DNA from: Thermomicrobiales bacterium
Lineage (GTDB): Bacteria > Chloroflexota > Chloroflexia > Thermomicrobiales > UBA6265
Length of the DNA: 64,000 bases
Reading direction: 5' to 3'
Assembly: GCA_965218235.1 (NCBI GenBank)
Contig: OZ244595.1
Coordinates: 1,062,561 to 1,126,560, forward strand
Of this stretch, positions 11,349 to 64,000 are shown piece after piece. Positions within the stretch are counted from its first letter, which is position 1. The number at the start of each line of letters is the position of its first letter. Made by a program: the position numbers and the translations under genes. Under the pieces are notes generated by a model, which ran no database searches, was not told the origin of the DNA, and saw only the letters and a program-made list of their open reading frames with translations.

Positions 11349-11434
11349 GCTCAAGTGGCCTTTTGGAGCATAGGAGTCCGTGGCACCGGCAAATGTATCG
11401 TGCTACCCCGATGGTGCGTCCGATGTCCAGTTCG

Positions 11435-11620
11435 CTCGCTGGAGCGTTCGCCGGACAGAGTGCATTACTCGTAGGGGATAACGTCTGGGCCCCTGCCAAA
11501 GCCGATGGCCACCCCCGCGCTGGCTCCGATACCTCCCGCGCCAGGCAGGAGTTCGGCTTAACAGCCAGCACGAGCTTCGAGGATGGACTACGTGGAACGA
11601 TCGATTGGTACGAGGAGTGC
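11435..11620 (+). pseudogene. Relic of the 3' end of a second, diverged fcl gene
   Basis: Translation ...[45 protein letters not shown] aligns with the fcl C-terminus [46 protein letters not shown]. Shared nucleotide blocks are GATACCTCCCGCGC, GAGTTCGGCTT, ACGAGCTTCGAGGATGGACT and GATTGGTACGA. No upstream Rossmann part is present. Confidence 0.65.
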
Positions 11621-11666
11621 CTCGATGAGAGTTCGATCCGGATGCAGGACTCACTGGACAAACGTC

Positions 11667-12272
11667 ATGGTTGATACATCGCCTCTTAGACAGCAGCTCT
11701 CGTATTTACGAGAGGATTGGAAACAGAACAGCTCACTCGTCGTGCGCACAGCACTCGTCAACTATCGGCTGGGTAGGGGCGTTTCTCTATCCTCATTGCC
11801 AGCTCCGGCGAAGAGGATTGTACGACTTATCGGGGCGATTGTTGACGCGCTGATTGTGATACCAATGGGCTGCGGCAAGATATTCTCGACCTCCGAGATC
11901 GGCCCAGGGTTCATCATGGCTCACCGAATGACTGGTTCTGTCATCCACCCGCACGCTCACATCGGGAAGGCCGCCAAGATTTTCCATCAAGTGACCATCG
12001 GCAACGCCGGGAGCAAGAACGGAGGCGCCCGCGTGCCAATAATCGGCGACGGCGTCACGATTTATCCGGGAGCCATTCTGGTGGGAAAAATCACGATTGG
12101 CGACAATGTCGTGATTGGTCCGAACGCGCTGGTCAACCAGGACGTGCCGTCTGGCAGCAGGGTGGTGGCACCGAGGGCCACCGTACTCGCTTCCATCATT
12201 GATAGCCGTGCGGGCGAACTCAAGTATGAACAAGCCTGGGAGGTAGTGGCACGGATACCGCCCGACGATTGA
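11667..12272 (+). CDS. Hexapeptide-repeat O-acetyltransferase (serine acetyltransferase/EpsC-like)
   Basis: Left-handed beta-helix repeats IGKAAKIFHQVTIGN..., PIIGDGVTIYPGAILVGKITIGDNVVIGPNALV. The start is trimmed to the ATG at 11667 because the upstream part of the track ORF overlaps the fcl relic. Confidence 0.7.
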   Translation: MVDTSPLRQQLSYLREDWKQNSSLVVRTALVNYRLGRGVSLSSLPAPAKRIVRLIGAIVDALIVIPMGCGKIFSTSEIGPGFIMAHRMTGSVIHPHAHIGKAAKIFHQVTIGNAGSKNGGARVPIIGDGVTIYPGAILVGKITIGDNVVIGPNALVNQDVPSGSRVVAPRATVLASIIDSRAGELKYEQAWEVVARIPPDD

Positions 12273-12385
12273 CTGATAGTGCATACCCCGTGCCCCTCAG
12301 TCCGAGCGTCTGATGCTGTTCTGGCTCGCGAGACCACGGTAGAGAGATCACATCGGAACTGGAGAGCTAGCTAAGCAAAAGGGAG

Positions 12386-13072
12386 ATGCGTGAAATGACC
12401 AATGTTGAAGATTACCTCCGACTTCAATACGCATCTGGGGTTTCGGAATACACGTGGGGGGACCGTGCGAAGAATATTGCGACCTTACTGCTCCGTCCCG
12501 TCGAGCGAAGAAAGGCGGCTCGGTTGGTGGCGAAGGGTGACCGACCTTTACGGCTTCATCTCGGCTGCGGCAATACATACAAGGCCGGTTGGCTGAATAT
12601 CGATCTCGCACGTCCAGGGCGCACGCTAGACCTGAAGTGGGATTTACGCGCTGGATTGCCTTTTTCAAACCAAAGCGTTGAGTCGATTTTCTCAGAACAC
12701 TTATTTGAGCATATTCCCCTTCCCAGTGTCATGATCTTGTTGAAGGAGTGTCGTCGCGTTCTTGCGCCTGACGGTGTAATCCGGATCGGCGTCCCGGATC
12801 TCGAACGCTATGTTCGAGCCTATCTCGGCAATGATCCCATCATCGACGAAGTCAGGCCGGGACGGCCTACGAGAGCCATCGCGATAAGCGAGATCTTCTA
12901 CTTTCACAATCATCGCGCAGCGTACGACGCAGAGACCTTGTGCTTATTGTTAACCGAGTCGGGTTTCAGTAGCGCTGGTCAAGCAAGCTTTGGCCGGAGC
13001 TCAATCAGTCCAGCTCCAGACTCGCCCAACAGGCAACGGGAAACGTTGTACGTGGAGGCGATCGCGTCATGA
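12386..13072 (+). CDS. Class I SAM-dependent methyltransferase (Methyltransf_11/23-like)
   Basis: LRLHLGCGNTYKAGWLNID, SVESIFSEHLFEHI and ECRRVLAPDGVIRIGVPD. An alternative in-frame ATG at 12395 sits behind GGGAGA. Confidence 0.75.
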   Translation: MREMTNVEDYLRLQYASGVSEYTWGDRAKNIATLLLRPVERRKAARLVAKGDRPLRLHLGCGNTYKAGWLNIDLARPGRTLDLKWDLRAGLPFSNQSVESIFSEHLFEHIPLPSVMILLKECRRVLAPDGVIRIGVPDLERYVRAYLGNDPIIDEVRPGRPTRAIAISEIFYFHNHRAAYDAETLCLLLTESGFSSAGQASFGRSSISPAPDSPNRQRETLYVEAIAS

Positions 13073-13109
13073 TTCTTCTTAGTGTGAACAAATCGTCGGA
13101 TCCGATAAC

Positions 13110-15902
13110 GTGAGAGTGAATCACAACCTCCGACCTATCGGGTCATGGCGCGATCAAATTCTTCGAGCGATGCCAATCGCTCGGACGATGCTTGGCTCGC
13201 TCGCCGCCGCGTTTATAGCGCAGGGAGCGTTACTCGTCAGTGGCATCCTCGCGGCGCGACTTCTCGGTCCAGAGAACCGGGGGCATCTCGCACTGCTCAC
13301 GTTGATCCCGGTCGTTATCTGTCAATTGGGAATGCTGGGGGTTGAAAAGGCAGTTTCATATCATATAGCCCGTAATGAGAAAGCCATCGCATCGATTGTC
13401 GCAACCGCAAGACAATTGGGAGTTATCCAGTCAATACTTTGCAGTGTTATCAACGGTGTCGTTTTATGGTCGCTGATGGGCGGCGATGCGAATGAGGTGC
13501 GGTGGAGCGCCGCGATAACGATGATGGTGCCTGTTACCATCTTCATTCGAAACTACGTTTTAGCCATCCTGCAGGGAATGCGTCTCTTCCGCGCCTACAA
13601 CTTTCAGCGAAACGTTCAACCGTTTCTGTACGCTGCGGGGTTGCTGCTCCTTTGGTCGCTCCATGAACCGTCCCTTCTGGTCGCCACTGGCATATGGACC
13701 CTAACGAGTATCGTGTCAGCGACGATTGGTATCATCTCGGTAGCCAGAGCCCTACCTCGTGATGCTAGGAGCGAAGTGCCTACACCGTCGGCCGGTGAAC
13801 TTATGCGGTTTGGTGCCAAAGGGTTCCTGGGTTCTGCCTCTCCGCTTGAGACTTTTCGCCTCGACCAAGCCGCTGTCGGACTTTTTCTCTCTCCAGCCAT
13901 GCTGGGAATTTATGTTGCGTCGCTTGCGTTCACGAACTTGCCTCGGTTCGTGTCACAAAGTGTTGGAATGATCGCATTTCCACATATCGCTGGACAGCCC
14001 AACGACAAGTTGGCGGCTCGCTCGATGTGGCGGTTCTTCTGGCTATCATTGGCTATGTCCATCATGATCGCAACTCCCCTAATAGTAGCAGCGCCAGTTT
14101 TAGTGCCATTGGCATTCGGCGAGGACTTCCGTGATGCCATTGCGCCGATGCAGATTCTCCTTATTGGCTCGGTTATCTTCGGAGCCAGGCGGACGCTTGG
14201 AGACGGAATGCGAGGCCGGGGCATGCCTCTCGCTACTACATGGGCGGAAATTGCCTCCTGGGTTTGCCTTGTACCGGCACTAGTCATTTTTGTTCAGTGG
14301 AGCGAACTCAAGGGCATCGCAGTCGCCATTGGTGCGTCAGGGGCGGTGGGACTGGCGGCCCTTGTCTTCTTGCAGCGGGCCAAAGAACTGAAGCCAACAG
14401 GAGTACCGCTGGAGAAGGAGTCATTATCGTCCCGGTTGACCGACGTACGATTCGTGCGTGCTCTGTTTAGCGTACATCGGAAGGCGCGACCGGAAATACA
14501 ACCATCTCGTAGGAACTCCTTTGGACTATCCATCAAGGTCGTGCGCATTGCGACCGTCTTGCTGCTCTTCCTTATTACTGTGCTTACGGTGGGAGCGGCA
14601 ATACCGTTACTTGGAACTGGACTCGCTATTCTTCTCGTCGTCGCGGTGATTGGCGCAGCAGCAACAGGCATTGTATGCGTTCGACTCGGCTATCCTGGTC
14701 TCATTATGATGTTATTCGCAGCGTCATTTGTTCTATTGGCGATGAATGGAGTCCGGGTCAACTCCAGTATCGCGATGAGCGATGTGCCGCTTTTGCTTGC
14801 TGTGCTTCTATCACTGCCCCTCCTAATGCAAAGTCGTCGGCAAGCAGTGCCGCGAGAACTCAAACGATTCATGATCGGTGTAACGTTACTTATTATTGGG
14901 AGTTTTATCGCCACAGCATTCTCTTCTGCAGTTACCGAAAGCTTAGTGCGGCTGATTAAGATGTCGACTTCGGTAGCAGTCGTTCCCCTCGCCATTGTGC
15001 TGCTTGCTCCTTCGACACGCTTTCTACGTCTCTTAAGTCTTCTATGGATAGCATCCGTGTCCCTGAGCGTCTTCATCGGCGTCGTTCAAGGGCCACCTCA
15101 TAACAGCAGTCGTATTATCGGCCTTGCGACGCATCAAAACGTTCTAGCATTTACTTGTATTTTGGCACTTGGACCCGCTCTAGCGTTCATGGTGGCCGGT
15201 AATCGTATCGAACGATTCATTGCCTTGGGTGGTACTGTTAGCGTCCTTATGGGCGTCTACTTTAGCGGGTCTCGGGCGGGACTGGTCGGCACGTTGGTGG
15301 TGGTTCTCATTTTCGCTATCATCACTCGCAACCGTGTACTGACGCTATTTCTCACTACAGCAACTCTACTCGGTGTGGCCGTCGGAGTGTTTGGCGTTCA
15401 AGTTCCATTCGAGCAAGGCACTTCGATCGAGAGACTGCTGCATTCAAGGAGTTCGGATGTGACGGTAGCGGCTAGTGACGAGGGACGCCAGGAGCGATTT
15501 GCGCAAGGGATTGCCAGTATTGAACAGCGACCCTTCGTCGGTATAGGTCTACAAGAAGCACGTGCCGCGCATAACGTCTACCTTCAAGTGCTATCGGCGT
15601 CGGGAGTAATTGGTTTCGTCGGATTCATTGTCGCCATCTGGGCGGCTCTTGCTCCGCTTAGGGATCGAACATTGAGGGCAAGAGCAAGAGTGGGCGAAAA
15701 GGCGCCGTTAATCATAGTCGGCTTTGGTGCTGGATACGCAGGTTTTCTGGTAGGAGAAGTGTTCAACAACAGCCTGTGGGAGCGGTTCATGTGGGCGTAT
15801 CCAATCGTTGGGCTGCTGCTCTATCTACGTTACAAGGAGGGTTCGTCCGAGATCAGCACGCTAGGCCTGGCTGACGCCAAGATTGAATGGAGAAGCCGAT
15901 GA
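13110..15902 (+). CDS. Fused Wzx-like flippase (N-terminal ~440 aa) and Wzy/O-antigen-ligase-family polymerase (C-terminal ~450 aa)
   Basis: Single 930-aa polytopic ORF. The N-terminal half looks like an oligosaccharide flippase of the MOP superfamily. The C-terminal half carries the Wzy_C-type loop YFSGSRAGLVG ... RPFVGIGLQEARAAHNVYLQVLSASGVIG. GTG start. Confidence 0.7.
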   Translation: MRVNHNLRPIGSWRDQILRAMPIARTMLGSLAAAFIAQGALLVSGILAARLLGPENRGHLALLTLIPVVICQLGMLGVEKAVSYHIARNEKAIASIVATARQLGVIQSILCSVINGVVLWSLMGGDANEVRWSAAITMMVPVTIFIRNYVLAILQGMRLFRAYNFQRNVQPFLYAAGLLLLWSLHEPSLLVATGIWTLTSIVSATIGIISVARALPRDARSEVPTPSAGELMRFGAKGFLGSASPLETFRLDQAAVGLFLSPAMLGIYVASLAFTNLPRFVSQSVGMIAFPHIAGQPNDKLAARSMWRFFWLSLAMSIMIATPLIVAAPVLVPLAFGEDFRDAIAPMQILLIGSVIFGARRTLGDGMRGRGMPLATTWAEIASWVCLVPALVIFVQWSELKGIAVAIGASGAVGLAALVFLQRAKELKPTGVPLEKESLSSRLTDVRFVRALFSVHRKARPEIQPSRRNSFGLSIKVVRIATVLLLFLITVLTVGAAIPLLGTGLAILLVVAVIGAAATGIVCVRLGYPGLIMMLFAASFVLLAMNGVRVNSSIAMSDVPLLLAVLLSLPLLMQSRRQAVPRELKRFMIGVTLLIIGSFIATAFSSAVTESLVRLIKMSTSVAVVPLAIVLLAPSTRFLRLLSLLWIASVSLSVFIGVVQGPPHNSSRIIGLATHQNVLAFTCILALGPALAFMVAGNRIERFIALGGTVSVLMGVYFSGSRAGLVGTLVVVLIFAIITRNRVLTLFLTTATLLGVAVGVFGVQVPFEQGTSIERLLHSRSSDVTVAASDEGRQERFAQGIASIEQRPFVGIGLQEARAAHNVYLQVLSASGVIGFVGFIVAIWAALAPLRDRTLRARARVGEKAPLIIVGFGAGYAGFLVGEVFNNSLWERFMWAYPIVGLLLYLRYKEGSSEISTLGLADAKIEWRSR

Positions 15903-17113
15903 AGCCACTACCGCGTGTTGTCTACTGGAACAATATCCCTAGTCCGTATGTGGTCGGGAGATTCAATGCCGTGGCGCGGCGTGGGAACATTGACCTCCAA
16001 GCGTGGTTCAACTCGCGTACGAATCCTGATCGAAGTTGGGATGTAATTGAAAGCCACTGGGAGTTTCCCGCGCGATACATTCCGTCCGTCCAGATCGCTG
16101 GGCAGTCGCTGCACTTGCCCTTCGCCGAGCTGCGTCAGTCGCAACCAGATCTGGTAATCTGCCTGTATAACCCGGTGTCGTTTGCGCTAGGAAGCGTCGG
16201 AATGGCCGCAAGCGGAGTTCGCTTCGCCTATCGTGTGCTCCCTACATACGGCAGCTGGGTGCGTCGCTCGACCGCCAAGGAGCTTTCGAAGAAGTTGCTT
16301 TTCCGCTTGGCCGATGCAGCGAAAGTACCTGGCCCGGAGGGCGCTGCTGTTGCTCTGCGTTACGGAGTTCCCGAAGAGCGGATTTTTGCCGTTCGCCAGT
16401 CCGTCGACGTGGATCACTTTGCGACGGCATCTGACGTGCCGGTCGTCGTACGTCGTAAAGAACGAGATCGCAGAGCCCTTCATGGATGCGTCTTCATCTA
16501 TGTTGGAAGACTCTGGCGGGGTAAAGGCCTCGATTACCTGTTTGACGCATTTGACCAAGTCCGCCAACACAATCCGGAAACTTCGCTGCTGATTGTAGGA
16601 GACGGCATTGACGAGGGACGCTATCGGACGCAGGCGAGGCAAAATCCGAATATCCACTTCGAGGGATTTGTGCAGCCAGCAGATATGCCGTCGATGTACG
16701 CGCTTGCGGATGTCTGTGTGTTCCCTACGCTTGGAGATCCTCACGGATTAGTGACGGAAGAGGCAATGGCTGCTGGGCTTCCTGTGATCGTTACGGAAGC
16801 GGCGGGTGACATTGATCGACGGTTACCGGACGGTGAGGCAGGTTTCATCGTTCCGCCGAGGTCAGCAGACGCCCTCGCTGCCCGAATGCTGGATCTCGCG
16901 AATGACGCTTCTATACGCCACCGATTTGCCCGATGCGGTCAAACACTGGTCTCATCACGTACACATGATGAATATGCGCTTGATCTTGAGGTTATGGTTG
17001 ATCGCGTTTTGTCTCTCCCCCGACGACGGCAACCCAGTCCAATAAACTCCCTGGCCTTCCGCTCCTTGCATACAGGCTTACGGCGGGATCCGGCACCTAT
17101 GGTGAGTCGATGA
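15887..17113 (+). CDS. GT4-family glycosyltransferase
   Basis: C-terminal GT-B motif FPTLGDPHGLVTEEAMAAGLPVIVTEAAG. An alternative start at 15899 gives an ATGA overlap with the upstream stop. Confidence 0.8.
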   Translation: MEKPMKPLPRVVYWNNIPSPYVVGRFNAVARRGNIDLQAWFNSRTNPDRSWDVIESHWEFPARYIPSVQIAGQSLHLPFAELRQSQPDLVICLYNPVSFALGSVGMAASGVRFAYRVLPTYGSWVRRSTAKELSKKLLFRLADAAKVPGPEGAAVALRYGVPEERIFAVRQSVDVDHFATASDVPVVVRRKERDRRALHGCVFIYVGRLWRGKGLDYLFDAFDQVRQHNPETSLLIVGDGIDEGRYRTQARQNPNIHFEGFVQPADMPSMYALADVCVFPTLGDPHGLVTEEAMAAGLPVIVTEAAGDIDRRLPDGEAGFIVPPRSADALAARMLDLANDASIRHRFARCGQTLVSSRTHDEYALDLEVMVDRVLSLPRRRQPSPINSLAFRSLHTGLRRDPAPMVSR

Positions 17114-18378
17114 GCGCGAAGGTGTTTTCGTCTGCGGGTCGCGATCAACCACCCGAGGTGAGGATGTCGTGGAAGCACGAATCGGAACAAGCAGGGTTGC
17201 GCGTACTGCAAGTGGTGCCTTCAGTTGGGATAAGCGAGGGAGGACTCGCTGTAGTCGTCGTTGAGCTTAGTGACGCCCTCCAACGCGCCGGAATGGCGGT
17301 GCAGATAGTTACGACGAACTCCGCCATACCCGGGCGTTCGGGGCAACCCCGCCGAAGCGTTGCAGAAACGGACTTGCCTTATGGCGCCGAAAACCTTGAC
17401 ATCCGTTACTTCCGAGTGCGGAGACCCTATCGCTTTCTGTTCGCCCCCGATATGGCGCGCGCGCTGAACACTTCGATCAGTTCCTTCGATCTTGTGCACA
17501 TCCATGGAATATGGAGCTTCTGCGCGCGTGCAAGTTGGAGAGCAGCCAGGCGCGCCGGCGTACCGATCGTCGTCTCTACACATGGGATGCTCGATCCATT
17601 CTTACTTGGCCGAGGAAGGGCGCAGAAGTTCATTGCACTAAACGAGTGGGTTCGACCGATGTTGCAAGGCGCCGCAGCCATTCATTGTACTTCGGAGCTC
17701 GAACACGACCAGATCTCCTCGTTTGCTCCTAACACCCAGCGCGCCGTGATTCCGAATGGTTTTCATCTCGACAGACTTGCCGTAGCGGCCGACTACGGCT
17801 CGTTTCGGCGCGAAATGGGAATCGGGGAGTCCTCGGCCATAGTGCTCAATCACGGTCGGCTCTCATATAAAAAGGGTTTGGACGTTCTTTTACGCGCATT
17901 CGCGAGGGTTTGTGACCAAGTCCAAGATTGTCGCTTGGTTCTTGTAGGTCCAGATGATGAGGGGATTCGAGCCGAACTTGAGGCACTGGCGAGCGATTTA
18001 GGGATCGGAAATGACGTTATATTCACGGGCGAGCTTTCCGGCGCAAAGCTGGCTAACGCGATTGCCGCTGCGGACGTGTGGGTACTCACTTCACACGCGG
18101 AAAACTTCGGAATGGCGGTCGTCGAGGCGATGTCCGCCGGTAAACCAACGGTGATTTCGAGTGCCGTCAATATAGCTCAGGATGCTGAGCAAGCGGGCGC
18201 TACTCTGAAAGTTGATGTCGATGCGAATGCTGCAGCATCGGCCATCGTCGAGTTGCTCAACGATCAAGAATTGAGCCGTGCCATTGGCCGCAGAGCGCGC
18301 CGGTTCGTCGAGCGATTCGATTGGGGAAAGGTTTCTGATCAATACATCTCGCTTTATCGGGAAGTAAGTGCCCGATGA
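17110..18378 (+). CDS. GT4-family glycosyltransferase
   Basis: LRVLQVVPSVGISEGG N-terminus. SHAENFGMAVVEAMSAGKPTVISS. An alternative start at 17164 (MSWKH) sits behind GAGGTGAGG. Confidence 0.8.
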   Translation: MSAKVFSSAGRDQPPEVRMSWKHESEQAGLRVLQVVPSVGISEGGLAVVVVELSDALQRAGMAVQIVTTNSAIPGRSGQPRRSVAETDLPYGAENLDIRYFRVRRPYRFLFAPDMARALNTSISSFDLVHIHGIWSFCARASWRAARRAGVPIVVSTHGMLDPFLLGRGRAQKFIALNEWVRPMLQGAAAIHCTSELEHDQISSFAPNTQRAVIPNGFHLDRLAVAADYGSFRREMGIGESSAIVLNHGRLSYKKGLDVLLRAFARVCDQVQDCRLVLVGPDDEGIRAELEALASDLGIGNDVIFTGELSGAKLANAIAAADVWVLTSHAENFGMAVVEAMSAGKPTVISSAVNIAQDAEQAGATLKVDVDANAAASAIVELLNDQELSRAIGRRARRFVERFDWGKVSDQYISLYREVSAR

Positions 18379-18406
18379 TGTCCGGCGCCGATAGTGCGCC
18401 GGACAT
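18378..18406. terminator. Perfect 11-bp stem hairpin right after the GT4 stop (possible terminator or attenuator, no U-tract)
   Basis: ATGTCCGGCGC-cgatagt-GCGCCGGACAT. Confidence 0.35.
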
Positions 18407-18532
18407 AGCAACCGAAGGAGTAGAAGGGTGTAGCCGAGAAGAATCCCATTTCATACTCGTGGCTCAACTGGCATTCAGAAACGGCTACTCCTAGCTCACC
18501 CGATTCGTAAGTACCCCAAGGAGACCTACAAC

Positions 18533-19642
18533 ATGGACCTTAACGGAAAGAACGTTGTTCTTGTATCAAGCTGGTCACAAAACATCGGCAACGCTTTCTT
18601 CAGTGTGTCGGGACGATGGATCATGGAACAGGCGGCCCCTGGCGCACGTGTCACATGGTTTCAAGACCAGCCCGGATATCGCACGTTTCATAACCAAACT
18701 AGGGGAAATCCTCAAAACCATGCGAGTCTGATCGCATCCCTCGATGTTGATTACCTCGTACTTCAGGGCCCGATGCTGACCTCCACCTTCCGCGCTATTT
18801 GGGAACCTTCGTTCCGTGCGCTGCGGGAGCGCGGCACCAAGATCGTGCTCCTTAGTGCCGGACTTTTCCGATACACCTCTGAGGAGATCGCTTCCGTGCG
18901 CGAATTCTTGTCCGAGTATCCGCCGGCCATCTTGGCGACTCGCGACTCAGTGACCTATTCTCACTTCCACGACCTGTGCGAAATATCCTACGACGGTATT
19001 GAGAGCGCGTTCTGCATTCCAGATGCTTATCAACCGCCCAAGATTGACTATCCTTCGTTTGCGGCGGTTTGCTTTGACCGCTATCCGGAGCCAGAGATTG
19101 TTATCGGCGGTCAGCCCTCACCATCCGCGCCAAATGGACGTAGCGGCAGCTTCGAATTCGAGGACGCGACCTGGAACTGGACGTTTCCACGGATCCCGTA
19201 CTTGCTCGCGAAGAAGGGACAAGGCGTTGCCTATCTCGGGGCTATGGCAGACCGAAGAAAGTCAATGCCTAACGCGTTGAATGGATTGGCAATCTTGCGA
19301 CCCGAGCACCGCACGAACCCTTTCATTGGTTGGAAAGTGTATCGCCGTCCCGGCGCAGTGGCCACGGATGAGCCGTATACCTATCTAGCCACGTACGCCA
19401 ATGCGGAGTTGACTCTAACTGATCGCGTCCACTCGGGCGTAGTTGCATTGGCGTACGGAACGCCGGCGATGCTCTTTGGAGCGACCCCGCGGGATGCACT
19501 CTTCGAGCGCATGGGAATCGCTGACATTCGGCGTCACCCGGTTACGCTTCCTGAAGAGCAGCGTGTGGCTGAGCGAGAAAAGCTGGTCGATTTCCTTCGA
19601 AGCGGACTTGAACGGCTCGAATCCCGGGGCCAAAGAAGCTAA
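18533..19642 (+). CDS. Polysaccharide pyruvyl transferase family protein (tentative)
   Basis: N-terminal NIGNAFF, mid RDSVTY and C-terminal LTDRVHSGVVALAYGTPAMLF resemble the PS_pyruv_trans pattern. RBS AAGGAGA lies upstream. Confidence 0.55.
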   Translation: MDLNGKNVVLVSSWSQNIGNAFFSVSGRWIMEQAAPGARVTWFQDQPGYRTFHNQTRGNPQNHASLIASLDVDYLVLQGPMLTSTFRAIWEPSFRALRERGTKIVLLSAGLFRYTSEEIASVREFLSEYPPAILATRDSVTYSHFHDLCEISYDGIESAFCIPDAYQPPKIDYPSFAAVCFDRYPEPEIVIGGQPSPSAPNGRSGSFEFEDATWNWTFPRIPYLLAKKGQGVAYLGAMADRRKSMPNALNGLAILRPEHRTNPFIGWKVYRRPGAVATDEPYTYLATYANAELTLTDRVHSGVVALAYGTPAMLFGATPRDALFERMGIADIRRHPVTLPEEQRVAEREKLVDFLRSGLERLESRGQRS

Positions 19643-19723
19643 GCCCGCCGTTCGACGCTGCGTTCAGGGTGCCGCTCGACAGCCAGTCCATTGGCATCCT
19701 AAAGTAGGGAAAGAGGTGCACTG

Positions 19724-20323
19724 TTGGGTCGTATCCAATTATCGCTGACATCCCAGCGCGGTTACCAGGCAGGGCGGCCGTTCTGGTTCCGAAGCCTCTG
19801 GCTCGTGGTCGAGGCGGTCACCCTCCTCAACCCTGTTTTCGTCCCGTACGGGCTCAAGGCCCGCATCCTCCGCCGGTTCGGCGCGACCATCGGGCGGAAC
19901 GTCATCATCAAACCGTCGATCCATATCAAGTACCCGTGGCACCTCGCGGTCGGCGACGATGTCTGGCTCGGCGAGCGGATCTGGATCGACAACTTCGTCC
20001 CGGTCACCATCGGCGACGATGCCTGCATCTCCCAGGGTGCGTACCTCTGCACGGGCAACCACGACTGGGCCGACCCTGGGATGGGTCTGGTCGTCCGACC
20101 AATCGCGGTCGAGCGGGGAGCCTGGGTCGGCGCGTTCGCCCGCGTCGGACCGGGCGTGACGGTTGGCGAGGAGGCGATCGTCACCCTGGGGTCGGTCCTG
20201 CTCAGGGATGCCGCGCCGCGTGGCGTCTACCGCGGCAATCCGGCCGAGTGGGTCCGGGAGCGTACGATCCGGGACCGGCCCGGGCCCGGCGGCGGTGGCG
20301 ACGCTGGACCGGCGCCGGAATGA
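19724..20323 (+). CDS. WcaF-like hexapeptide acetyltransferase
   Basis: RFGATIGRNVIIKPSIHIKYPWHLAVGDDVWLGERIWIDNFVPVTIGDDACISQGAYLCTGNHDW. TTG start. GC returns to the high level here. Confidence 0.8.
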   Translation: MGRIQLSLTSQRGYQAGRPFWFRSLWLVVEAVTLLNPVFVPYGLKARILRRFGATIGRNVIIKPSIHIKYPWHLAVGDDVWLGERIWIDNFVPVTIGDDACISQGAYLCTGNHDWADPGMGLVVRPIAVERGAWVGAFARVGPGVTVGEEAIVTLGSVLLRDAAPRGVYRGNPAEWVRERTIRDRPGPGGGGDAGPAPE

Positions 20324-53246: not shown

Positions 53247-54109
53247 GAGCGTGTCATGGACTCTGCGGGGGTCGTAAACTCAGCAAATGAGCACGATCTC
53301 CCGCAAGCCCTACCCGAGCGACGTGACGGACGACGAGTGGGCCTTCGTCGCCCCCTACCTGACGCTGATGACCCCGGACGCCCCGCAGCGCCGGCATGAT
53401 CCCCGCGAGGTTTTCAACGCCCTGCGCTGGATGGTGCGGACCGGCTCGCCGTGGCGCTATCTGCCCGGCGATCTGCCGCCGTGGGCAGCGGTCCACCAGC
53501 AGACGCTGCGCTGGATCGCCGCCGGCTGCTTCGAGGAGATGGTCCACGACCTGCGGGCGCTGCTGCGCGAAGCGAGCGGCCGCGATCCCGATCCCACCGC
53601 GGTGATCCTGGACGCGCGGACCCTGCGCGGCACCCCGGAGAGCGGGCACCGGGCCGGCTACGACGGGCACAAGAAGACCCGCGGCAGCAAGCTCCACGCG
53701 GCGGTCGACACGCTGGGGCACCTGCTGGCGCTGCGCGTGACGCCGGCCAACGATCAGGAGCGGGCGCAGGTGGGCGAGCTGGCGGACGCGGTGCAGGCGG
53801 CGACCGGCAACACCGTGGAACTGGCCTGGGTCGATCAGGGCTACACGGGGGAGGAGCCGGCTGACGAGGCGGAGGCACGCGGGATCGAGCTGGTCGTGGT
53901 CCGGCTGCCGGGAGCAAAGAAGGGCTTCGTCTTGCTGCCGCGGCGCTGGGTGGTGGAGCGCTCGTTCGCCTGGGCGACGCGCTTCCGGCGGCTGGCCAAG
54001 GACTATGAGCGCCTGCCCACGACCGTGGCCGGCTTGCATTTCGTCGCCTTTGCCTGCCTCATGCTTCACAAACTCTCGCTCCTGCCACTCGGAAGTCCAT
54101 GACACGCTC
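53247..54109 (+). mobile_element. Complete IS5-family insertion sequence (IS427-like size), about 0.86 kb
   Basis: Terminal inverted repeats GAGCGTGTCATGGAC (53247-53261) and GTCCATGACACGCTC (54095-54109) are perfect. They are flanked by TA on both sides (53245-46 and 54110-11). Confidence 0.85.
53287..54102 (+). CDS. IS5-family DDE transposase
   Basis: PYPSDVTDDEWAFVAPYL...REVFNALRWMVRTGSPWRYLP (DUF4096-type N-terminus). DDE_Tnp_1 body AVILDARTL...LHAAVDTLGHLLAL...VDQGYTG. Confidence 0.9.
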   Translation: MSTISRKPYPSDVTDDEWAFVAPYLTLMTPDAPQRRHDPREVFNALRWMVRTGSPWRYLPGDLPPWAAVHQQTLRWIAAGCFEEMVHDLRALLREASGRDPDPTAVILDARTLRGTPESGHRAGYDGHKKTRGSKLHAAVDTLGHLLALRVTPANDQERAQVGELADAVQAATGNTVELAWVDQGYTGEEPADEAEARGIELVVVRLPGAKKGFVLLPRRWVVERSFAWATRFRRLAKDYERLPTTVAGLHFVAFACLMLHKLSLLPLGSP

Positions 54110-56263: not shown

Positions 56264-56821
56264 ATGGACCTGGCGCTCGCTGTCCATCTGGTACACACAG
56301 TAGACCGACACTCGAATAAGTCTACCCTGGAGCCCTCGAGCCCTCAAGAGTTGATGCAGCTGGCCCAGCAGATCCGGACCAGTAATCCGCAACCCTTACC
56401 GATCGAGCCCGCTCGAGCCCCGACGAAGAGTCTCCGGCGACGGTTCTCTCCCCAAGAGATCGAAGATCTTGTAGCTCGATACAACGCTGGAGCGGCCATT
56501 CGGGCGTTGAGTTTAGAGTACGGTGTTTCGAGGAGTGGGCTTCGGCAGCTCCTCCAAGCTGAGGGTGTGACGTTGCGGGTACAAGGGATCATGCCGGAAG
56601 ATGCCGAAAAAGCGGTGCGACTTTACGAAACCGGGCTTACGATCAGGCAGGTCGTGGACCTGGTTGGCTACTCGTATGGCACGATCCGGTCAGCGCTCCA
56701 TGAGAACGGTGTCGCCATGCGAGCAGGCCGTGGCGGCATGGGCCACGCGCTGGAACACGGCCGACACCCGCACCAAGCTGCGCCGCCTCTACCCGACATA
56801 GGACGGTTGACAGACCACTAA
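56264..56821 (+). CDS. Tandem-HTH protein resembling the C-terminal half of small serine recombinases (no catalytic domain, likely relic)
   Basis: Two repeats: FSPQEIEDLVARYNAGAAIRALSLEYGVSRSGLRQLL and PEDAEKAVRLYETGLTIRQVVDLVGYSYGTIRSAL. No resolvase Ser-domain lies upstream. The start is uncertain. Confidence 0.4.
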   Translation: MDLALAVHLVHTVDRHSNKSTLEPSSPQELMQLAQQIRTSNPQPLPIEPARAPTKSLRRRFSPQEIEDLVARYNAGAAIRALSLEYGVSRSGLRQLLQAEGVTLRVQGIMPEDAEKAVRLYETGLTIRQVVDLVGYSYGTIRSALHENGVAMRAGRGGMGHALEHGRHPHQAAPPLPDIGRLTDH

Positions 56822-57943
56822 GTACATTCACAGAATTTCTGCGGGATGTGGCTGTACGCCAATGATCGAGCGCATCTGTTTGGGTACGTGATTGTACCGG
56901 TCAAAGAAGGCGGTTGCGGCGGCGATGAGCGCCTTGACGGTCGGGAAGAGTTCGCAGTGGGTGACTTCCCGCCGGAAGTGCCGCCAGAGCATCTCGATCG
57001 GATTGAGCCATGGGCTGTAGCTTGGAAGATAGAGCAGGACGAGACGGCCCGCCGCACCACGCACCACCGCCTCGATCTCATCGCCTTCGTGGGTGGAGGC
57101 GTTGTCCCATGCCACATAGATGGTTCCGGCGGGATGCTTCTCCACCAACGCCTCAAGGAGTTCGGCGATTTCGCGCCGTCGTTTATGCCGGCGGATGAGG
57201 ACGACGGTCTGGCCGGCATGGTAATCCACCGCCCCAATGCCGTACCGTTTCTGTGGCTGGCCAGGCGTTGAAATCATCACCTGCTGGCCTTTGGGACTCC
57301 ACATGGCCGTGAGCGTTGGTAGCCAACTCAGGTTGAACTCGTCGGCATAGTAGAAGTGATCATCGGGGGCGAGGTGGTCACGCATGGCTTCAATCGTCTT
57401 TTTTTGAGCGCGTACGCCGGGTCGGGGCTGGTGATCGTGTGCTGCGGCCGGCTCAGCACGATGCCGACGGCTTTCAGATGCAGGCGCACGGTCTCGTCGG
57501 CAACCCGGATCCCGGTTTGCTCCGCCAGGTAGTCGGCAAGTCGCTGCAAGGTCCACAGTGAGAACGGCAGATCCAGGCTCCGGGGCCGGCGCCGCACGGC
57601 GGCAAGCAACTGGTCGACATAGGCCGCGGTGACCTTGCTGGGCGCTCCGGGATGGGGCTGGTCGCGCAGCCCTTCGATCCCCTCACTCAGGTAGCGTTTG
57701 AGCCAGCGTCGCACCGTGTCCTCGCTCATGCGCACGATGCCGGCAATGGCCGCCGCCGTTAGGTGCTGCTCCCCGGCCAACAACACCATCTGGACCCGGG
57801 TCCGCAGGCGGACATCGCGGCAGGTTCGGTACACCTCGTCCAAGGCGTCAAGCTGCGTCGAGGTGAGTTCGGGAATGCGTACGGGCTGCATCGCCGCCTC
57901 CTTTTTCTCAGCATACACCCCGCAACTTCTCTTTGGTTGTACT
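56821..57943 (-). mobile_element. Complete IS630-family insertion sequence, about 1.12 kb
   Basis: Imperfect terminal IRs AGTACATTCACAGAATTTCTGCGG versus the reverse complement AGTACAACCAAAGAGAAGTTGCGG. Flanked by the TA dinucleotide typical of IS630/Tc1 (56819-20 and 57944-45). Confidence 0.85.
56828..57891 (-). CDS. IS630-family transposase encoded in two frames joined at an A7 run
   Basis: OrfA (HTH) reads MQPVRIPELTS...PDPAYALKK. OrfB (DDE) reads KKTIEAMRDH...YADEFNLSW...VAWDNASTH...YLPSYSPWLNPIEMLW. The frames differ by -1 at CTCAAAAAAAGAC (plus-strand T7 at 57399-57405). RBS AAGGAGG precedes the ATG at 57891. Confidence 0.8.
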
Positions 57944-58149
57944 TAGATCGTCTGCGAGAACGAAACGGCCCTGCGGCAGTCTACAGTGTCAACAGCAAGG
58001 ACTATCCTTCCATCCGTAGGCCTGCCGAGCTGATCTCGACTATTGACGATGGGGCTGGCGCCAGGACCACTTCGGGTTTCCAGGCGGCCGACCGATTACT
58101 TGGGTGTGAGGCGATCTCTACCTCATAGCCTGGGACATGCTAGGGCGGG

Positions 58150-58980
58150 ATGCATTCTGATGGACAGGCTCGACACGGGCGAGGAGTGAGACCGAAGAGC
58201 ATGACGGAGCAATCGGCTCGGCCACCGACCACCCCAAAGCGGCAACTCAAGCAGTACAAGCGCCGCCCCGACGTCGATCTCCAGATCGACGAAGCGCTCA
58301 CCCTCGATCCCGCCGACCTGCGTCGGCGCGTCAATATCGTCTCCCCGACCGAGGAGGGATATTTCAAGGCTGAAACGATCGTCTACTTGCTACGCGAAGC
58401 TCACGCTGTGGGCGATCAGGAGCGCGTGGGCTGGCTTTGGACCTCACTCGTCAGCCGCTCCAAGGGTTACGTCAGAGGGTGGCTGGGTGGCTTGTCTCGC
58501 GAGCTGCAGGGGGAAGCCGTCGACGCTGTCTGGGATCGACTCATCGGGAAACTGCTGGCGCCTGATCACAGCGGGGACTACTACGAGGTTTCCTACTGGG
58601 ACGCGCTGGAGAAGCGGTCCGTCGACGTCTTCCGGAGCTTCACGGCGAAGACGAGTGCTTATCAAGAGACAAGTGTATCCGCCGTCCAGCTCCGCGCCGC
58701 GGACGACGCGGCTGAGCTAGATCCGGTCGATTTGGACCGTTCCTGGCAGCCCGAGTTTGCCACCCTCAACCAGGATGGGAGTCAGAGGATTCTCGCCCTC
58801 ATCCCCGAGCAGTACCGAGAGGCCTTCTACCTCTACGCCGTCGAGGGCTGGCCACTCTCGAGCTCAGATCCCCACCGACCGTCACTTTGCAAGAAGTTCA
58901 ACAGAACACCGGAAACGATACGGACGTGGCTGAGGCGGGCCCGCGCCGCTGCCAAGGAAGGGCTTGGAGAGCAACCATGA
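58150..58980 (+). CDS. Sigma-70-family-like protein (divergent, ECF-sized)
   Basis: The C-terminal IPEQYREAFYLYAVEGWPL...SLCKKFNRTPETIRTWLRRARAAAKE looks like a region-4 HTH. A region-2-like helix AVDAVWDRLIGKLL is present. An alternative start lies at 58201 (MTEQSARPP). Confidence 0.5.
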   Translation: MHSDGQARHGRGVRPKSMTEQSARPPTTPKRQLKQYKRRPDVDLQIDEALTLDPADLRRRVNIVSPTEEGYFKAETIVYLLREAHAVGDQERVGWLWTSLVSRSKGYVRGWLGGLSRELQGEAVDAVWDRLIGKLLAPDHSGDYYEVSYWDALEKRSVDVFRSFTAKTSAYQETSVSAVQLRAADDAAELDPVDLDRSWQPEFATLNQDGSQRILALIPEQYREAFYLYAVEGWPLSSSDPHRPSLCKKFNRTPETIRTWLRRARAAAKEGLGEQP

Positions 58981-59624
58981 GCGAGCGACCGCAGGACGAG
59001 CGCCTGGAGCGCATCCTCAACGAATTCGTGACGGAGGTGCCGTCACCGCACGCCTCCCACGTTGGAGCCTGGATGGCTCGCTTCCCCGAGTACGGTGACG
59101 AGATCATGGCTTTCGCCGCAAGCTGGGCCATGATGAGGGTGTCGCCCCGCAGCCCTAACGTGATCACCGAAGAAGAGGTCGAGGCGCGGGGTCTGGCTGC
59201 ACTCGAACGGTTGCGTTCAGAGTCGGGTGCGTCGAACCATGGAGCGGCATCGGGTGGCATCACGTCGTTGATGCCACCCGGCTCCTCGCTCGACGACCTG
59301 GCCGAACATGCTGGCCTGAGTGTCCCTCTGTGGCGGCAGATCAGCCTGCGCCAGATCGCGAATGTGCCACCCGATGTGATCAAGGACATAGCGGCAGCTA
59401 TCCAGACGTCGTATCAGGCGGTGGCTGACTTCATTCGACAGGGACCACCCCTCGCCGCCCCTGGACATTACAGGGCGGCGGAACAACCCCGGGTAAGCGA
59501 ACCACTCGACTTCTTCGAGGAAGTCCGGCTTGACGACGACCTCACAGAGAGCCAGAAAGCCCGCCTCCTCGCGATGGGTTCGAACACCGCAGAGGATGGC
59601 CTCACCGGCGGACTGATCCGATGA
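58977..59624 (+). CDS. HTH-containing protein (ImmR/XRE- or anti-sigma-like partner), hypothetical
   Basis: ATGA overlap with the upstream stop. Central LDDLAEHAGLSVPLWRQISLRQIANV helix-turn-helix-like segment. 215 aa. Confidence 0.45.
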   Translation: MSERPQDERLERILNEFVTEVPSPHASHVGAWMARFPEYGDEIMAFAASWAMMRVSPRSPNVITEEEVEARGLAALERLRSESGASNHGAASGGITSLMPPGSSLDDLAEHAGLSVPLWRQISLRQIANVPPDVIKDIAAAIQTSYQAVADFIRQGPPLAAPGHYRAAEQPRVSEPLDFFEEVRLDDDLTESQKARLLAMGSNTAEDGLTGGLIR

Positions 59625-62600
59625 ATGACTGGAGTGCGGAGCGACGTGCCGCCAGGTCGCTCCGCACTCGAGCTGGGGCCGAACATCTCTCGCTCGCTTC
59701 CGACGTGATCGCGGCCATCGCGATATTGACCAAGGTGAAGTCGTCGAGCGTCCGCGAGGGGCGTTCCCTTCTGGACGGCGGTCAAGCCAAGCTTGATATC
59801 GACGCGAAGCGAATCTGGTACAGCGCCGCGATCGAGCCCTCGGTACTGCCATTCTTCCTCGCCCACGAGTACGCGCACCTCGAGCTCAATCATGGCGGGT
59901 GCCGAGGTAGAGCGGGCGACGTCGACGTCGAGGCCACCGGCACGGAGATGGACGCCGGCATCGAGCGGGTTCAGGGCTACAGCCCACAGGAGCGACGAGA
60001 ACGAGCGGCCAATATCTTCGCCCAAGAACTGTTGCTGCCGACCCCGCTCCTGCGTCGGTGGTTCCTGGACGACGGGCTGGGCGCTACCGCGATAGCGAAC
60101 CGCGTCAGGCTCGACGTGGGACTCGTTCGCCGCCAGCTGATGGCCGCGCTCCTCGACGTGACCAACGACGCCGCTGTCCAGGAGGATGGTAGCAACGAGG
60201 CCGACGACGAGGTCATGGGTGCGGGTAAGGTTGCGCCGACGACGGACACCGTCCCGGCCGCTCTGGACGACAGCCAGGCCGCCGCCGCGTACGTCGACCA
60301 GGGCCCCTTCCTGCTCGAGGCTGGCCCGGGAACCGGGAAGACCCGGACGCTGATCGCACGCATCCTCCACCTCCTCGCACGGGGCGCCCGGCCTGACCAG
60401 ATCGTGGTGCTGACCTTCAGCAACCGAGCGGCAGCGGAGATCCGGGATCGGGTGGCCCTGACCATGCCGGGAGCCGAGGCGGACCTATGGGTCGGCACGT
60501 TCCACGCCTTCGGCCTTGAGCTGCTTCGCCAGTATGGTCCCCGGATCGGTCTGCCCAAGCAGCTGGACATACTCGACCCGTTCCGGGCACTGCAGTTCCT
60601 GGAGGAGAACCTGCTGCAGCTCGGGTTGGCCCACTACCAGCAGCTCTCGCGCCCGTCACAGCCGCTGCGCGACATCGCGAAGGCCATCTCGCGGGCCAAG
60701 GACGAGCTCTGCGAACCCGATGACTATCGCGGGCACGCCGAGAAGATGTTGATCCGGGCCCAGGAGCGGCGGGATGACGAGGCCATCCTCGTGGCGGAGA
60801 AGGCGATCAAGGTCGCCCACGTCTACCGCTTCTATCAGGATCACCTGGAGCGCAGCGGACTGGTCGACTTCGGTGACCTGATCGTCCGGACGGTGAAGCT
60901 CCTACGGGACGACGCCGGGTTGCGGGACGAGGTTCGCGACCGGTACCGCTACGTCCTCGTCGACGAATACCAGGACGTCAACCACGCCTCCACCGAGCTG
61001 GTCCGGGAACTGGCGGGAGCAGGGGAGGGGCTATGGGTCGTCGGCGACCCACGTCAGGCCATCTACCGCTTCCGTGGTGCCGACCCGAGCAACGTCTCCC
61101 GGTTCACCGAGCACTTCCCGACGGCTAGTCGATCAGCTCTGCGCTTTCAACTACCGCTCTCGCCCTGTGATCATCGAGGCCGTGTCGGGCCTCGCCGGCG
61201 TCATGAAGGCCGCCGACGGGTCAGTGCCTGAGCCCTGGCAGTCGACGCGGGTCGACACGCGTGGTGAGATAGGCCTCGGTATCGCCGCCACGTTCGAGGA
61301 CGAGATGGCCGGCATCGTCGCGGCTATCCGGCAGTACCAGGCGGCCAAGGTGCCGTTCAGGGACCAGGCGGTCCTCTGCCGCACCCATACGATCCTCGGC
61401 CGCGTCGCCGGGGCGCTCAAGGCGGCCGGGATACCCACGCAGTACTTTGGCAACCTGTTCGAGCGGGAAGAGACGCGCGACATGCTGGCGCTCCTCTCGC
61501 TGGCGGCCGAGGCCGACGGCGTCAGCCTGATACGCGTGGCCACCTTGCCCGAATACGCCATCCCGGCCGCCGATGTCGCCCAGCTGCTCGACGCGGCCGG
61601 GGACCGCGCGATGGCCTTCCCGCAGGCACTCTCGCTCACGTCGACCCTGCAGGATCTCTCCGCTGAAGGTCGCGCTGGTTTGGAGCGTCTCGCGGACCAT
61701 CTGGGAGATGTCCCCTTCACGACCGGCCCCTGGGGGTTCCTGAGCCGCTACCTCCTAGAGGTGAGCCAGTACCTCGCGTCCCTGGCCCGTGACGCCAGTG
61801 TCGAGGGGGCCATCAGCCGGTCAGCCCTACTGGCCTTCCTCGACGTTGTTCATGGCTATGAGCGGGCCAACCGGACACCGGACCTGCCGGGCAGGGATGT
61901 GGCTCAGTTGAAGTCCGGCTTCCTCAAGCATGTGCGCGACCTGCAGGTCTACGGCGAGGAGCGACAGTACCGGCAGCCACCCGACCTGCCTGATGGCGTC
62001 GACGCGGTCCGCGTGATGACCATGCACGCCAGCAAGGGGCTGGAGTTTCCGGTCGTGTACCTGCCCTACCTTGGTGGGCAGTACATACCGCAACCCAGGC
62101 AGTCCGACGACTGCCCGCCGCCGGACGGGATGGTCGCCAACCCGGTGTCGGACAACGACACCGACGAGCTCAATGTGTTCTTCGTCGCCGTGTCGCGGGC
62201 GCAGGATGCGCTCTTGCTGTCCCGGGCCGAGCGGTATGGCGATGCGTCCAGCAACGCGTCAAAGTTCCTTGCACACGTCCAGCCCTGGTTGCCCCGGAAG
62301 GCAGACAGCTCGCCGTGGTGGCTTTCGCAGGCCGATCCTCCCATGCCAAGGTCGGGGACAGGAGCCAACCTCGGACGTGACCTGTTCGGTGACCGGGAGC
62401 TGGAGACCTACATCCGGTGCCCCCGACAGTATTACTACGATCGCGTATTACGTCTCGAGGGGCGGTTCGGCGGGACGGCATCGCTGCGGTTCCACCGGTC
62501 GATCCAGCGCACCCTGCGTTGGGTCGAGGGTGTCCACACTGGACCAGCCGGTCAGGCGCCGGCGAACGCCGAGGTCCTTGACCAGCTGGACGCGATCTGG

Positions 62601-63116
62601 GCGGAGACCGGCCCGGTCACGCACCCCTACGAGCCGCTCTACCGGACTGAGGCCAGGCGGATGGTACTGCTGGCCGCGGGCTGGCTGCACCAGCGCGCGG
62701 GGACCTTTGAGGAAGTCACGCTGGAGATCCCGGTCGGCGATGCCCAGGTCCGGTTCCGGCCACACCAGGTCGAGCGGATCGGCACCTCCGACGCGAGGAT
62801 CCGGCGGATTCGCACGGGTCGCGTGCCGCGGAAAGCTCCTGACGACGACCGCGATGCTCTCTACATGTTGGGGACCGGCCAGATCGGGGGCCGCGTGGAC
62901 GCCGAGGCGATGTACCTTGGCGGGGCTGAGGTAAAGATCGAGCCGATCAATCTCTCCCCGAAGAAACGTGCTACACGCATCGAGCACTACCGTGAGGCCA
63001 TCGAGGGCATCAGAGCTGGCGAGTTCCCGGCTAGGCCCAGCAGCCGGCAGTGCCCAGGCTGCCCGTTCCTCTTCATCTGCCCTGCGCCGGAGCCACCCAC
63101 ACTCCCGGCCGGCTGA
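59621..63116 (+). CDS. ImmA/IrrE-like Zn-peptidase + UvrD/PcrA-type SF1 helicase + Cas4/AddB-like 4-Cys PD-(D/E)XK nuclease fusion. The reading frame is broken once near 61.12-61.15 kb.
   Basis: Peptidase motifs FFLAHEYAHLELNHG (HExxH) and ERAANIFAQELLLP. Helicase motifs I AGPGTGKT, Ia VLTFSNRAAAEI, II LVDEYQDVN and III VVGDPRQAIYRFRGA are in the 59621..61231 frame. Motif IV NYRSRPVI, HASKGLEFPVVYL and FVAVSRAQDAL are in the 61074..63116 frame. The C-terminus has YIRCPRQYYY ... RQCPGCPFLFICP. ATGA overlap with the upstream gene. Confidence 0.75.
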
Positions 63117-63256
63117 CTACTTCCGGTTTTTCTGACGGCTCCCGATTACTCCAGTGTGAGGGGATGTCGCCGGCGCCGTGCCGGCGCCCCGCACCGGTCG
63201 GCTGTCTCGCTGACCGCTTATTGGACCGCCCTCACCAGGGCAAGGAGACCGTCACC

Positions 63257-63568
63257 ATGGTCAACCCGACCACCATTTTGCGGCCGATTAAGCCGCGCAA
63301 GGAGATCAAGGTCACCGTCCGCTACCCGGCCGCCGCCAAACCCTTCAAGGACAACAACGCCGCCATCGACGAGACTGTCGGTGAGCTCAAGGTCCGGGTG
63401 CTGCGCGCGTTCGGCCTCGACGCCGGTGGCGACGCCGTGAGCTATCAGCTGTTCCACGGGCGGGCCGCCCTGGATGAAACCCGCACCCTCGGGTCAATCG
63501 AGGCCAACGAGGGCGATGCTGACCGCGAGCTTCAGCTGAAGTTCGCGCAGCAGATCACGCAGGGCTGA
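63257..63568 (+). CDS. Small beta-grasp (ubiquitin-like) candidate ending in Gly-stop
   Basis: 103 aa. RBS AAGGAGA lies 8 nt upstream. Alternating beta-strand pattern EIKVTVRY...TVGELKVRVLRAFGL...SYQLFHG...LQLKF. The terminal residues are QQITQG followed directly by the stop. Adjacent to the E2-like ORF. Confidence 0.55.
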   Translation: MVNPTTILRPIKPRKEIKVTVRYPAAAKPFKDNNAAIDETVGELKVRVLRAFGLDAGGDAVSYQLFHGRAALDETRTLGSIEANEGDADRELQLKFAQQITQG

Positions 63569-63571
63569 TCG

Positions 63572-64000
63572 GTGGACCAGCAGCTAGCCGCGCTCAACCT
63601 TCAGCTGGACCTGGAGCAGATCCGCCAGGAGGTCCTCCCGGCGGAACTGGATCGCTGGGCGATTGCGTTGGTCGGTCCTGTCTGCCTCGACGTCAGCCTC
63701 TCGCCTGGTCGCGACCCCGTCGAGCGCTACCAGGCCCGACTGACTTGGCCGGACTACCCGGACCGGCCACCCTCGGTCCGCTTCGTCGAGCCCGCGACGG
63801 GCCGCCTCGACCTGAGCCGGGCCTGGCCCGATTTTCCCGGCGTCCGCCCGCCGCAGGATATCTCCGCCCCCTGGACCAGCGACGGTCACGCAGCCCACCC
63901 CGAGTGGCACGCTGATTCCCGCTACCGGTGGTCCAGCCACGGCAACCCGCTGCTCCGGATCCTCCGCACGCTCCAGGAACAACTGGACGACGAATACCTA
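63572..64000 (+). CDS. E2/UBC-fold-like protein, 5' partial (runs off the window), Ser at the expected active-site position
   Basis: A GTG lies 3 nt after the Ubl stop, in the same frame, open to the window end (143 codons). It is not in the ORF track because it has no stop. RWAIALVGP...ARLTWPDYPDRPPSVRFVEP...AWPDFPG...DISAPW parallels the E2 pattern W.a.I.GP...F...YP..PP.V.F...HPN...G.IC. Confidence 0.55.
   Translation, partial: MDQQLAALNLQLDLEQIRQEVLPAELDRWAIALVGPVCLDVSLSPGRDPVERYQARLTWPDYPDRPPSVRFVEPATGRLDLSRAWPDFPGVRPPQDISAPWTSDGHAAHPEWHADSRYRWSSHGNPLLRILRTLQEQLDDEYL

Follow-up and report, generated by a model that had tools for sequence, protein, structure and literature searches.

Genes at the locus

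The window (the whole stretch of 64,000 nucleotides analysed here, taken from contig OZ244595.1 of a Thermomicrobiales bacterium) ends inside a gene for a BilB-like E2 with a UBC fold, which lies on the forward strand at 63572 to 64000 and is cut by the window end such that 143 of its 147 codons are visible. The gene has a GTG start codon, located 3 nt past the stop codon of a gene for a ubiquitin-like protein (Ubl), and translation of 63572-64000 on the forward strand reproduces the 143 residues quoted in a previous sequence-only reading of this DNA. On the reverse strand, an antisense ORF of 132 aa (63584-63982) runs across the E2 gene and was put down to the high GC content, as it is the forward frame that is conserved across all relatives.

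The Ubl gene (63257 to 63568, forward strand) is found upstream of the E2 gene here as in all related loci, and encodes a BilA-like protein of 103 aa which gives a weak match to the PADLOC BilA model (E=0.009) and ends at its stop codon with ...LKFAQQITQG. A free, conjugatable C-terminal Gly is thus present in the Ubl encoded just 5' of the E2. The C-terminus follows the pattern Q-Q-[IV]-[TV]-Q-G, the Gly of which is invariant in 14 relatives, and over a longer stretch the subfamily motif L-x-L-K-L-[AS]-Q-Q-[IV]-[TV]-Q-G is strongly conserved in the window and in loci L001-L016. In about half of the Ubl members 1-3 residues follow the Gly, and in the rest, that of the window included, there are none; some members of BilA have likewise been described with extra residues past the C-terminal Gly.

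In the related loci a gene for a Ubl of ~90-105 aa precedes that of the E2, and the pair is followed, where the contig reaches, by genes for proteins of ~180 aa and ~500 aa, often with 4-nt overlaps. The smaller of these matches BilC (PADLOC BilC, 1e-14; DUB(BilC) 8tyx_B, 3e-6) and has the Glu of JAMM proteins together with their H-x-H...S-x-x-D motif, whilst the larger matches BilD (PADLOC BilD, 6e-31; E1(BilD) 8tyz_A, 2.5e-17) and contains the Pfam domains BilD_N and ThiF. The order Ubl-E2-JAB-E1 is kept in all 16 related loci, barring those contigs which end inside BilD. In an alignment of 120 relatives of the E1, Cys347/350 and Cys482/484 are invariant or nearly so (119-120/120) and match the zinc-binding CxxC and CxC motifs of E. 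aridi BilD; Cys406 is invariant (120/120) and falls in the segment that holds the catalytic Cys417 of BilD. The window ends inside the E2; genes for BilC and BilD are presumably present downstream in this genome as well. No second E2 and no other Bil genes were found elsewhere in the window.

Directly upstream of the Ubl is a gene (59621 to 63116, forward strand) whose Pfam domains are those of an M78/IrrE peptidase, a UvrD-type helicase and a PD-(D/E)xK nuclease, the helicase being of the UvrD/PcrA type and GajB-like in PADLOC. It is linked to the cassette in the closest relatives only (window, L013 and L001). In the window it is present as two ORFs, 59621-61231 and 61074-63116, split by one extra T at 61146 (GCGCTTTCAAC vs GCGCGTCAAC) which was located by alignment with L013, where the gene forms a single ORF of 1164 aa; in L001 it also reads in one continuous frame. 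The frameshift could be an assembly error.

Two genes on the forward strand with weak Pfam matches precede the helicase gene with 4-nt overlaps, the first encoding a sigma70-region-4-like HTH protein (58150/58201-58980) and the second an HTH_31-like protein (58977-59624). Both are putative regulators. L013 has this pair of genes ahead of the helicase as well, and the stretch is 100% identical between the two loci. CapH/CapP regulator pairs have been reported beside Bil, Bub and CBASS operons, and the succession of HTH protein and M78 peptidase domain is reminiscent of such a pair, with the peptidase fused in this case to the helicase-nuclease. Further upstream, an IS630-family element (DDE_3 and HTH, two overlapping ORFs; 56828-57918, reverse strand) lies just outside the locus and is also found in L013, and an IS4/IS5-type transposase gene (DDE_Tnp_1 and DUF4096; 53287-54102, forward strand) is found in exact copy on two of the contigs of this assembly.

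The E2 protein and its fold

The full-length E2 was obtained (P0001, 147 aa, 100% identical) and adds only the four residues GRFP beyond the window end, so that no Cys is hidden in the C-terminus; an unseen C-terminal Cys was thereby ruled out as the nucleophile. Within the protein the segments YPDRPPSVRF, AWPDFPG and QDISAPW span residues 62-71, 84-90 and 95-101, respectively, and the Ser of the last of these is Ser98, encoded by TCC at 63863-63865. The sole Cys of the protein is C38 (GPVCLD). This is a non-conserved position, located in strand beta2 of the structural model and occupied in most relatives by Glu, and C38 was ruled out on these grounds as an alternative nucleophile.

An AlphaFold2 model built on ten homologues is confident (mean pLDDT 82, pTM 0.78) and opens with a long helix, followed by four strands, a long loop and some short helices, with a single long helix at the C-terminus. 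Together with the Foldseek matches of this model to E2s, it bears out the UBC-like fold that had been assigned from sequence; the best matches in the PDB were UbcH8, UbcH7, UbcH5b and BilB (8tz0_C, 8tyz_C; TM 0.63-0.65). The window E2 gave no match to any Pfam family, including UQ_con (PF00179) with its HPN...C signature, and with hhalign the alignment to human UBE2D2 and UBE2L3 was confined to the YPxxPPxvxF motif of beta3-beta4. The segment AWPDFPG had been read as an HPN-like element. That assignment is not established, and the invariant G90-x-R92-P93...D96, which in the model folds into a small hairpin directly before residue 98, is as good a candidate.

The residue at position 98

Cys was found at the column of residue 98 in 9/9 homologues from the first search (44-78% identity) and in 12/12 related loci, these comprising the contig of P0003 and eleven from species-representative genomes, a scan which gave distant relatives only. 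A profile search of 1.84 billion representatives with the E2 then yielded 129 proteins, of which 112 aligned sequences cover column 98; Cys is present in 106/112, and in more than 90% of alignment A2. The exceptions include three distant members ('PQLCI') whose Cys has been shifted out of the column by the alignment, a distant member that lacks the Cys (P0136) and one chimeric fragment whose match starts at column 98 itself. Ser at this column is confined to the window protein and one chimeric fragment, leaving the window protein as the single full-length member with Ser among ~110.

The closest relative (P0139, 88% identical and in the same 90% cluster as the window E2) reads QDICAPW. Its contig, L013, is 96.5% identical to the window over 56289-64000 and has TGC at the codon where the window has TCC. 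When P0002 is used as outgroup, Ser98 comes out as derived, having arisen on the window branch. Judged by these comparisons, Ser98 arose by a recent G-to-C transversion (TGC to TCC) in a single genome and Cys is ancestral. As Cys occupies the column in 106/112 members and in all close relatives, the Ser is a meaningful difference as opposed to a chance one, and the window protein is best described as a mutated member of a Cys family.

Several lines point to residue 98 as the active-site position, namely the global fold match, the near-invariant Cys of the column, its placement in the model between a hairpin and a short helix, and a C...E...H motif in common with BilB. This placement, past a small hairpin and ahead of a short helix, resembles that seen in canonical E2s. 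A conserved His is found close by, as has been reported for BilB: across an alignment of 67 E2 sequences no column other than that of H109 is fully invariant, and from the spacing of the motif this His would be equivalent to His151 of BilB. C98 excepted, each of the 40 positions that do not vary in the close family is unchanged in the window E2, D96 and H109 among them, and the protein is thus not visibly degenerating.

Since one assembly alone supports the Ser, a base-calling error is possible and the true base at 63864 could be G, restoring the Cys. The same region contains the 1-nt indel that breaks the neighbouring gene, and the sizes of the contigs are consistent with an assembly of long-read or metagenomic origin. 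However, the change is a transversion and not an indel, and the region differs from the closest relative at 30/429 positions, which indicates a genuinely different allele in which one further substitution is unremarkable. A sequencing or assembly artefact is therefore considered unlikely.

It had also been suggested that the protein could be an inactive UEV-like adaptor. In a role of this kind the Ser variant would be kept as a subunit which binds the Ubl or the E1, and might serve to hold BilA back or to control BilD instead of acting as a conjugating enzyme. UEVs (Mms2/UBE2V2, Uev1a, TSG101) are ancient, conserved Cys-less families with dedicated partners. The window E2 is similar to these in having a UBC fold devoid of the catalytic Cys, its ORF is intact with conserved surfaces, and the profile gives weak matches to UEV2/Mms2; however, these matches span only the generic YPxxPPxvxF motif of beta3-beta4. 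Moreover, one substitution in a single genome accounts for the loss of the Cys, which is present in the 88%-identical relative, and the window has no second, Cys-bearing E2 that could act as partner. Given that the loss shows no conservation and that a partner E2 is lacking from the window, such a role appears improbable. The suggestion came closer to the truth in its outcome than did the link to Bub discussed below, but what is found is a point substitution in one genome and not an adaptor family.

Relationship to Bil systems

The ORF encodes a BilB-type E2 of a Bil-like Ubl-E2-JAB-E1 operon, and is therefore of a known kind. The best PDB sequence for the E2 family profile is E2(BilB) (E=0.0045; hhalign probability 95%), and PADLOC BilB matches 40/67 members of the E2 family (best 3e-15), Pfam PF24702 (DUF7665, 'BilB-like') 25/67 and the Type II 'CEHH' model 7/67. 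The window E2 itself gives a weak match to PADLOC BilB (E=0.002), and in place of the catalytic Cys expected of a BilB E2 it has Ser98. We regard the family as a thioester-type Bil cascade and as a divergent subfamily, in which the E2 is short, the Ubl has a single domain and most members fall below Pfam thresholds.

The E2 resembles Type II BilB, for which the reference is Ensifer aridi TW10 (8TYZ/8TZ0; 'CEHH' PF14455). In common are a UBC fold without the last two helices, a long loop that leads from beta4 to the active site, the gene order Ubl-E2-JAB-E1 and a Cys...Glu...His motif (C98/E104/H109 in the family, C138/E144/H151 in BilB), and Type II BilB provides both the best sequence match in the PDB and a TM of ~0.65. 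However, identity is ~16%, the window protein has 147 aa against 204, its catalytic Cys is replaced by Ser, and just 7 of the 67 family members reach the CEHH Pfam model. Similarity to Type I BilABCD (Collimonas sp. OK412) is seen in the matches to PADLOC BilB and PF24702, in partners that match BilC and BilD, in the invariant terminal Gly of the Ubl and in the position of the loci among other defence and mobile-element genes. Here the differences are that the Ubl has one beta-grasp domain (~90-105 aa) as opposed to the two domains of the ISG15-like BilA, that the catalytic Cys (C113 in Collimonas) is Ser in the window, and that the window E2 is without a Pfam match. The cassette thus belongs to a large, mostly metagenomic and poorly annotated Bil-like subfamily, recognisable by a single-domain Ubl that ends in QQ[IV][TV]QG and an E2 of 145-147 aa.

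Comparison with Bub systems

The sequence-only reading had connected the Ser to the Bub operons. Its description of the protein holds, in that the ORF has an E2/UBC fold with Ser at the catalytic position and no alternative Cys; the link to Bub does not. The E2 of Bub has a family-wide invariant Ser (PMC11601596), with His/Asp or Lys/His nearby, for example S333/H335/D299 (PMC11601596). The operons consist of a Ubl-E2 fusion with a JAB-E1 fusion (Type I) or of an E2-E1 fusion (Type II) (PMC11601596) and always include a DUF6527 (BubE) serine protease (PMC11601596), and the Bub E1 is without a catalytic Cys and employs an invariant Tyr of the crossover loop (PMC11601596).

With BubB the window E2 shares its bacterial origin, the UBC fold, a Ser in the catalytic position and a His nearby, and the resemblance ends there. 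In place of a family-wide Ser the column holds Cys across the E2 family, with the Ser confined to the window genome. Neither the Ubl-E2 nor the E2-E1 fusion occurs: Ubl (103 aa) and E2 (147 aa) are encoded by individual ORFs, and in the relatives the E1 also has a gene of its own. Nor are the related E1s Cys-less, as Cys406 is present in 120/120 along with the zinc-type motifs, which marks the relatives as a Cys-type E1 family. None of the genes called in L001 and L013-L016 encodes DUF6527 (PF20137), and no Bub chain was present among the sequence matches of the E2 or its top fold matches. With a family residue that is Cys, separate genes in the order Ubl-E2-JAB-E1, proteins that match BilA-D, an invariant Cys in the E1 and no similarity to Bub proteins, membership of Bub was ruled out. 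A Ser in the active site of an E2 should not, on its own, be taken as a sign of Bub-type chemistry.

Probable consequence of the substitution

The explanation which we favour, and regard as probable, is that this is a BilB-type E2 of a Bil-like anti-phage operon in which a single recent change of Cys98 to Ser has given rise to a loss-of-function or strongly weakened allele. In a cascade of the Bil-like family the E1 would adenylate the C-terminal Gly of the Ubl, take the Ubl onto a Cys as a thioester and hand it to the Cys of the E2, which would then transfer it to target lysines. The TGC to TCC change in the window genome has turned this Cys of the E2 into Ser and left the remainder of the protein intact. 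An E2 with Ser98 could still bind the E1 and the Ubl and might slowly become charged, forming a stable Ubl-O-E2 oxyester, the discharge of which to lysine would be expected to be orders of magnitude slower; conjugation and defence would consequently be largely switched off, with the Ubl possibly trapped.

This biochemical effect of Ser98 is suggested by analogy with mutants of other E2s. In characterised Bil systems, mutation of the BilB Cys to Ala abolished both conjugation and phage defence. Engineered E2s in which the Cys is changed to Ser can be charged by the E1, and their ubiquitin oxyesters have half-lives of hours, a stability for which such mutants are used as mimics. The laboratory mutants UBE2D2/UbcH5 C85S and UBE2G1 C90S have the same active-site change as the window E2, and with a Cys-type E1 a Ubl-O-E2 oxyester would likewise be expected; unlike these engineered tools, the window E2 is a natural allele within a bacterial defence operon.

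A counterpoint to a crippled allele is provided by the Bub systems, which show that Ser-based E2 chemistry is workable in bacteria. It could thus be proposed that Ser98, assisted by H109 and Asp96, accepts the Ubl from the E1 thioester in oxyester linkage and nonetheless passes it on to targets, thereby representing a step from the thioester of Bil to the oxyester of Bub. Bub E2s do employ an invariant Ser with a nearby His/Asp or Lys/His, the window E2 retains every other residue that is invariant in the family (D96 and H109 included), and E2s mutated from Cys to Ser are enzymatically chargeable. However, Ser is found in one full-length member of ~110 and the 88%-identical relative has Cys, the E1s of the family keep their invariant Cys406 where those of Bub use Tyr, His and Asp stand at other distances from the Ser than in S333/H335/D299 of Bub, and oxyester adducts of E2 and ubiquitin take hours to discharge. 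A functional serine E2 is accordingly considered unlikely. That the Ser98 allele works from a Cys-type E1, perhaps with altered kinetics or specificity, and constitutes a natural intermediate between the Bil thioester and the all-oxyester pathway of Bub, would be a most unlikely outcome.

If the preferred reading of a disabled or weakened allele is correct, the event itself is an ordinary one, in which a single base change in a catalytic codon has incapacitated a defence operon, wholly or in part. The allele nevertheless provides a Cys-to-Ser E2 of natural origin, and the extent to which Bil-type E2s tolerate an oxyester bears on the origins of Bub.

Divergence along the locus and in its relatives

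Alignment of window 56289-64000 with L013 2718-10429 shows that divergence ranges from 0% to 8.6% along these 7.7 kb. The two sequences are identical over 57919-59620; divergence is 0.3-1.4% across the IS630/HTH portion, rising to 2.2% in the N-terminal half of the helicase and 8.6% in its C-terminal half, with 3.9% in the Ubl and 7.0% in the E2. This mosaic pattern suggests that alleles have recombined with one another inside the defence locus.

For the E2, 10 derived amino-acid changes were assigned to the window branch vs 3 to the L013 branch, and the nonsynonymous/synonymous counts were 9/5 and 3/6, respectively, a difference which, with such small counts, is not significant. The pairwise dN/dS between the two (0.44) still indicates constraint. 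The nonsynonymous excess and the frameshift in the helicase-nuclease gene fit relaxed selection or decay of the locus and give a faint hint in that direction; this argument from rates is further weakened by the mosaic divergence, which is probably a product of recombination.

In L013 the BilD (E1) gene, at 10983-12480, is split by a frameshift near 12260 into products of 442 aa and 60 aa. The name of this contig (…_6x_l) suggests low coverage, and the split may thus be an assembly error as opposed to a sign of decay. In the same locus (12489-20267) the cassette is accompanied by a fragment of an IS and by a type I restriction-modification system. In L001 (5588-9812) the cassette is found near DUF6602 and a CBASS set comprising SMODS, Cap2-type E1/E2 and Prok-JAB, whilst AbiEii occurs near the cassette in L015 (2344-4152) and L016 (4309-9632), the latter locus also containing an MmeI-type enzyme.
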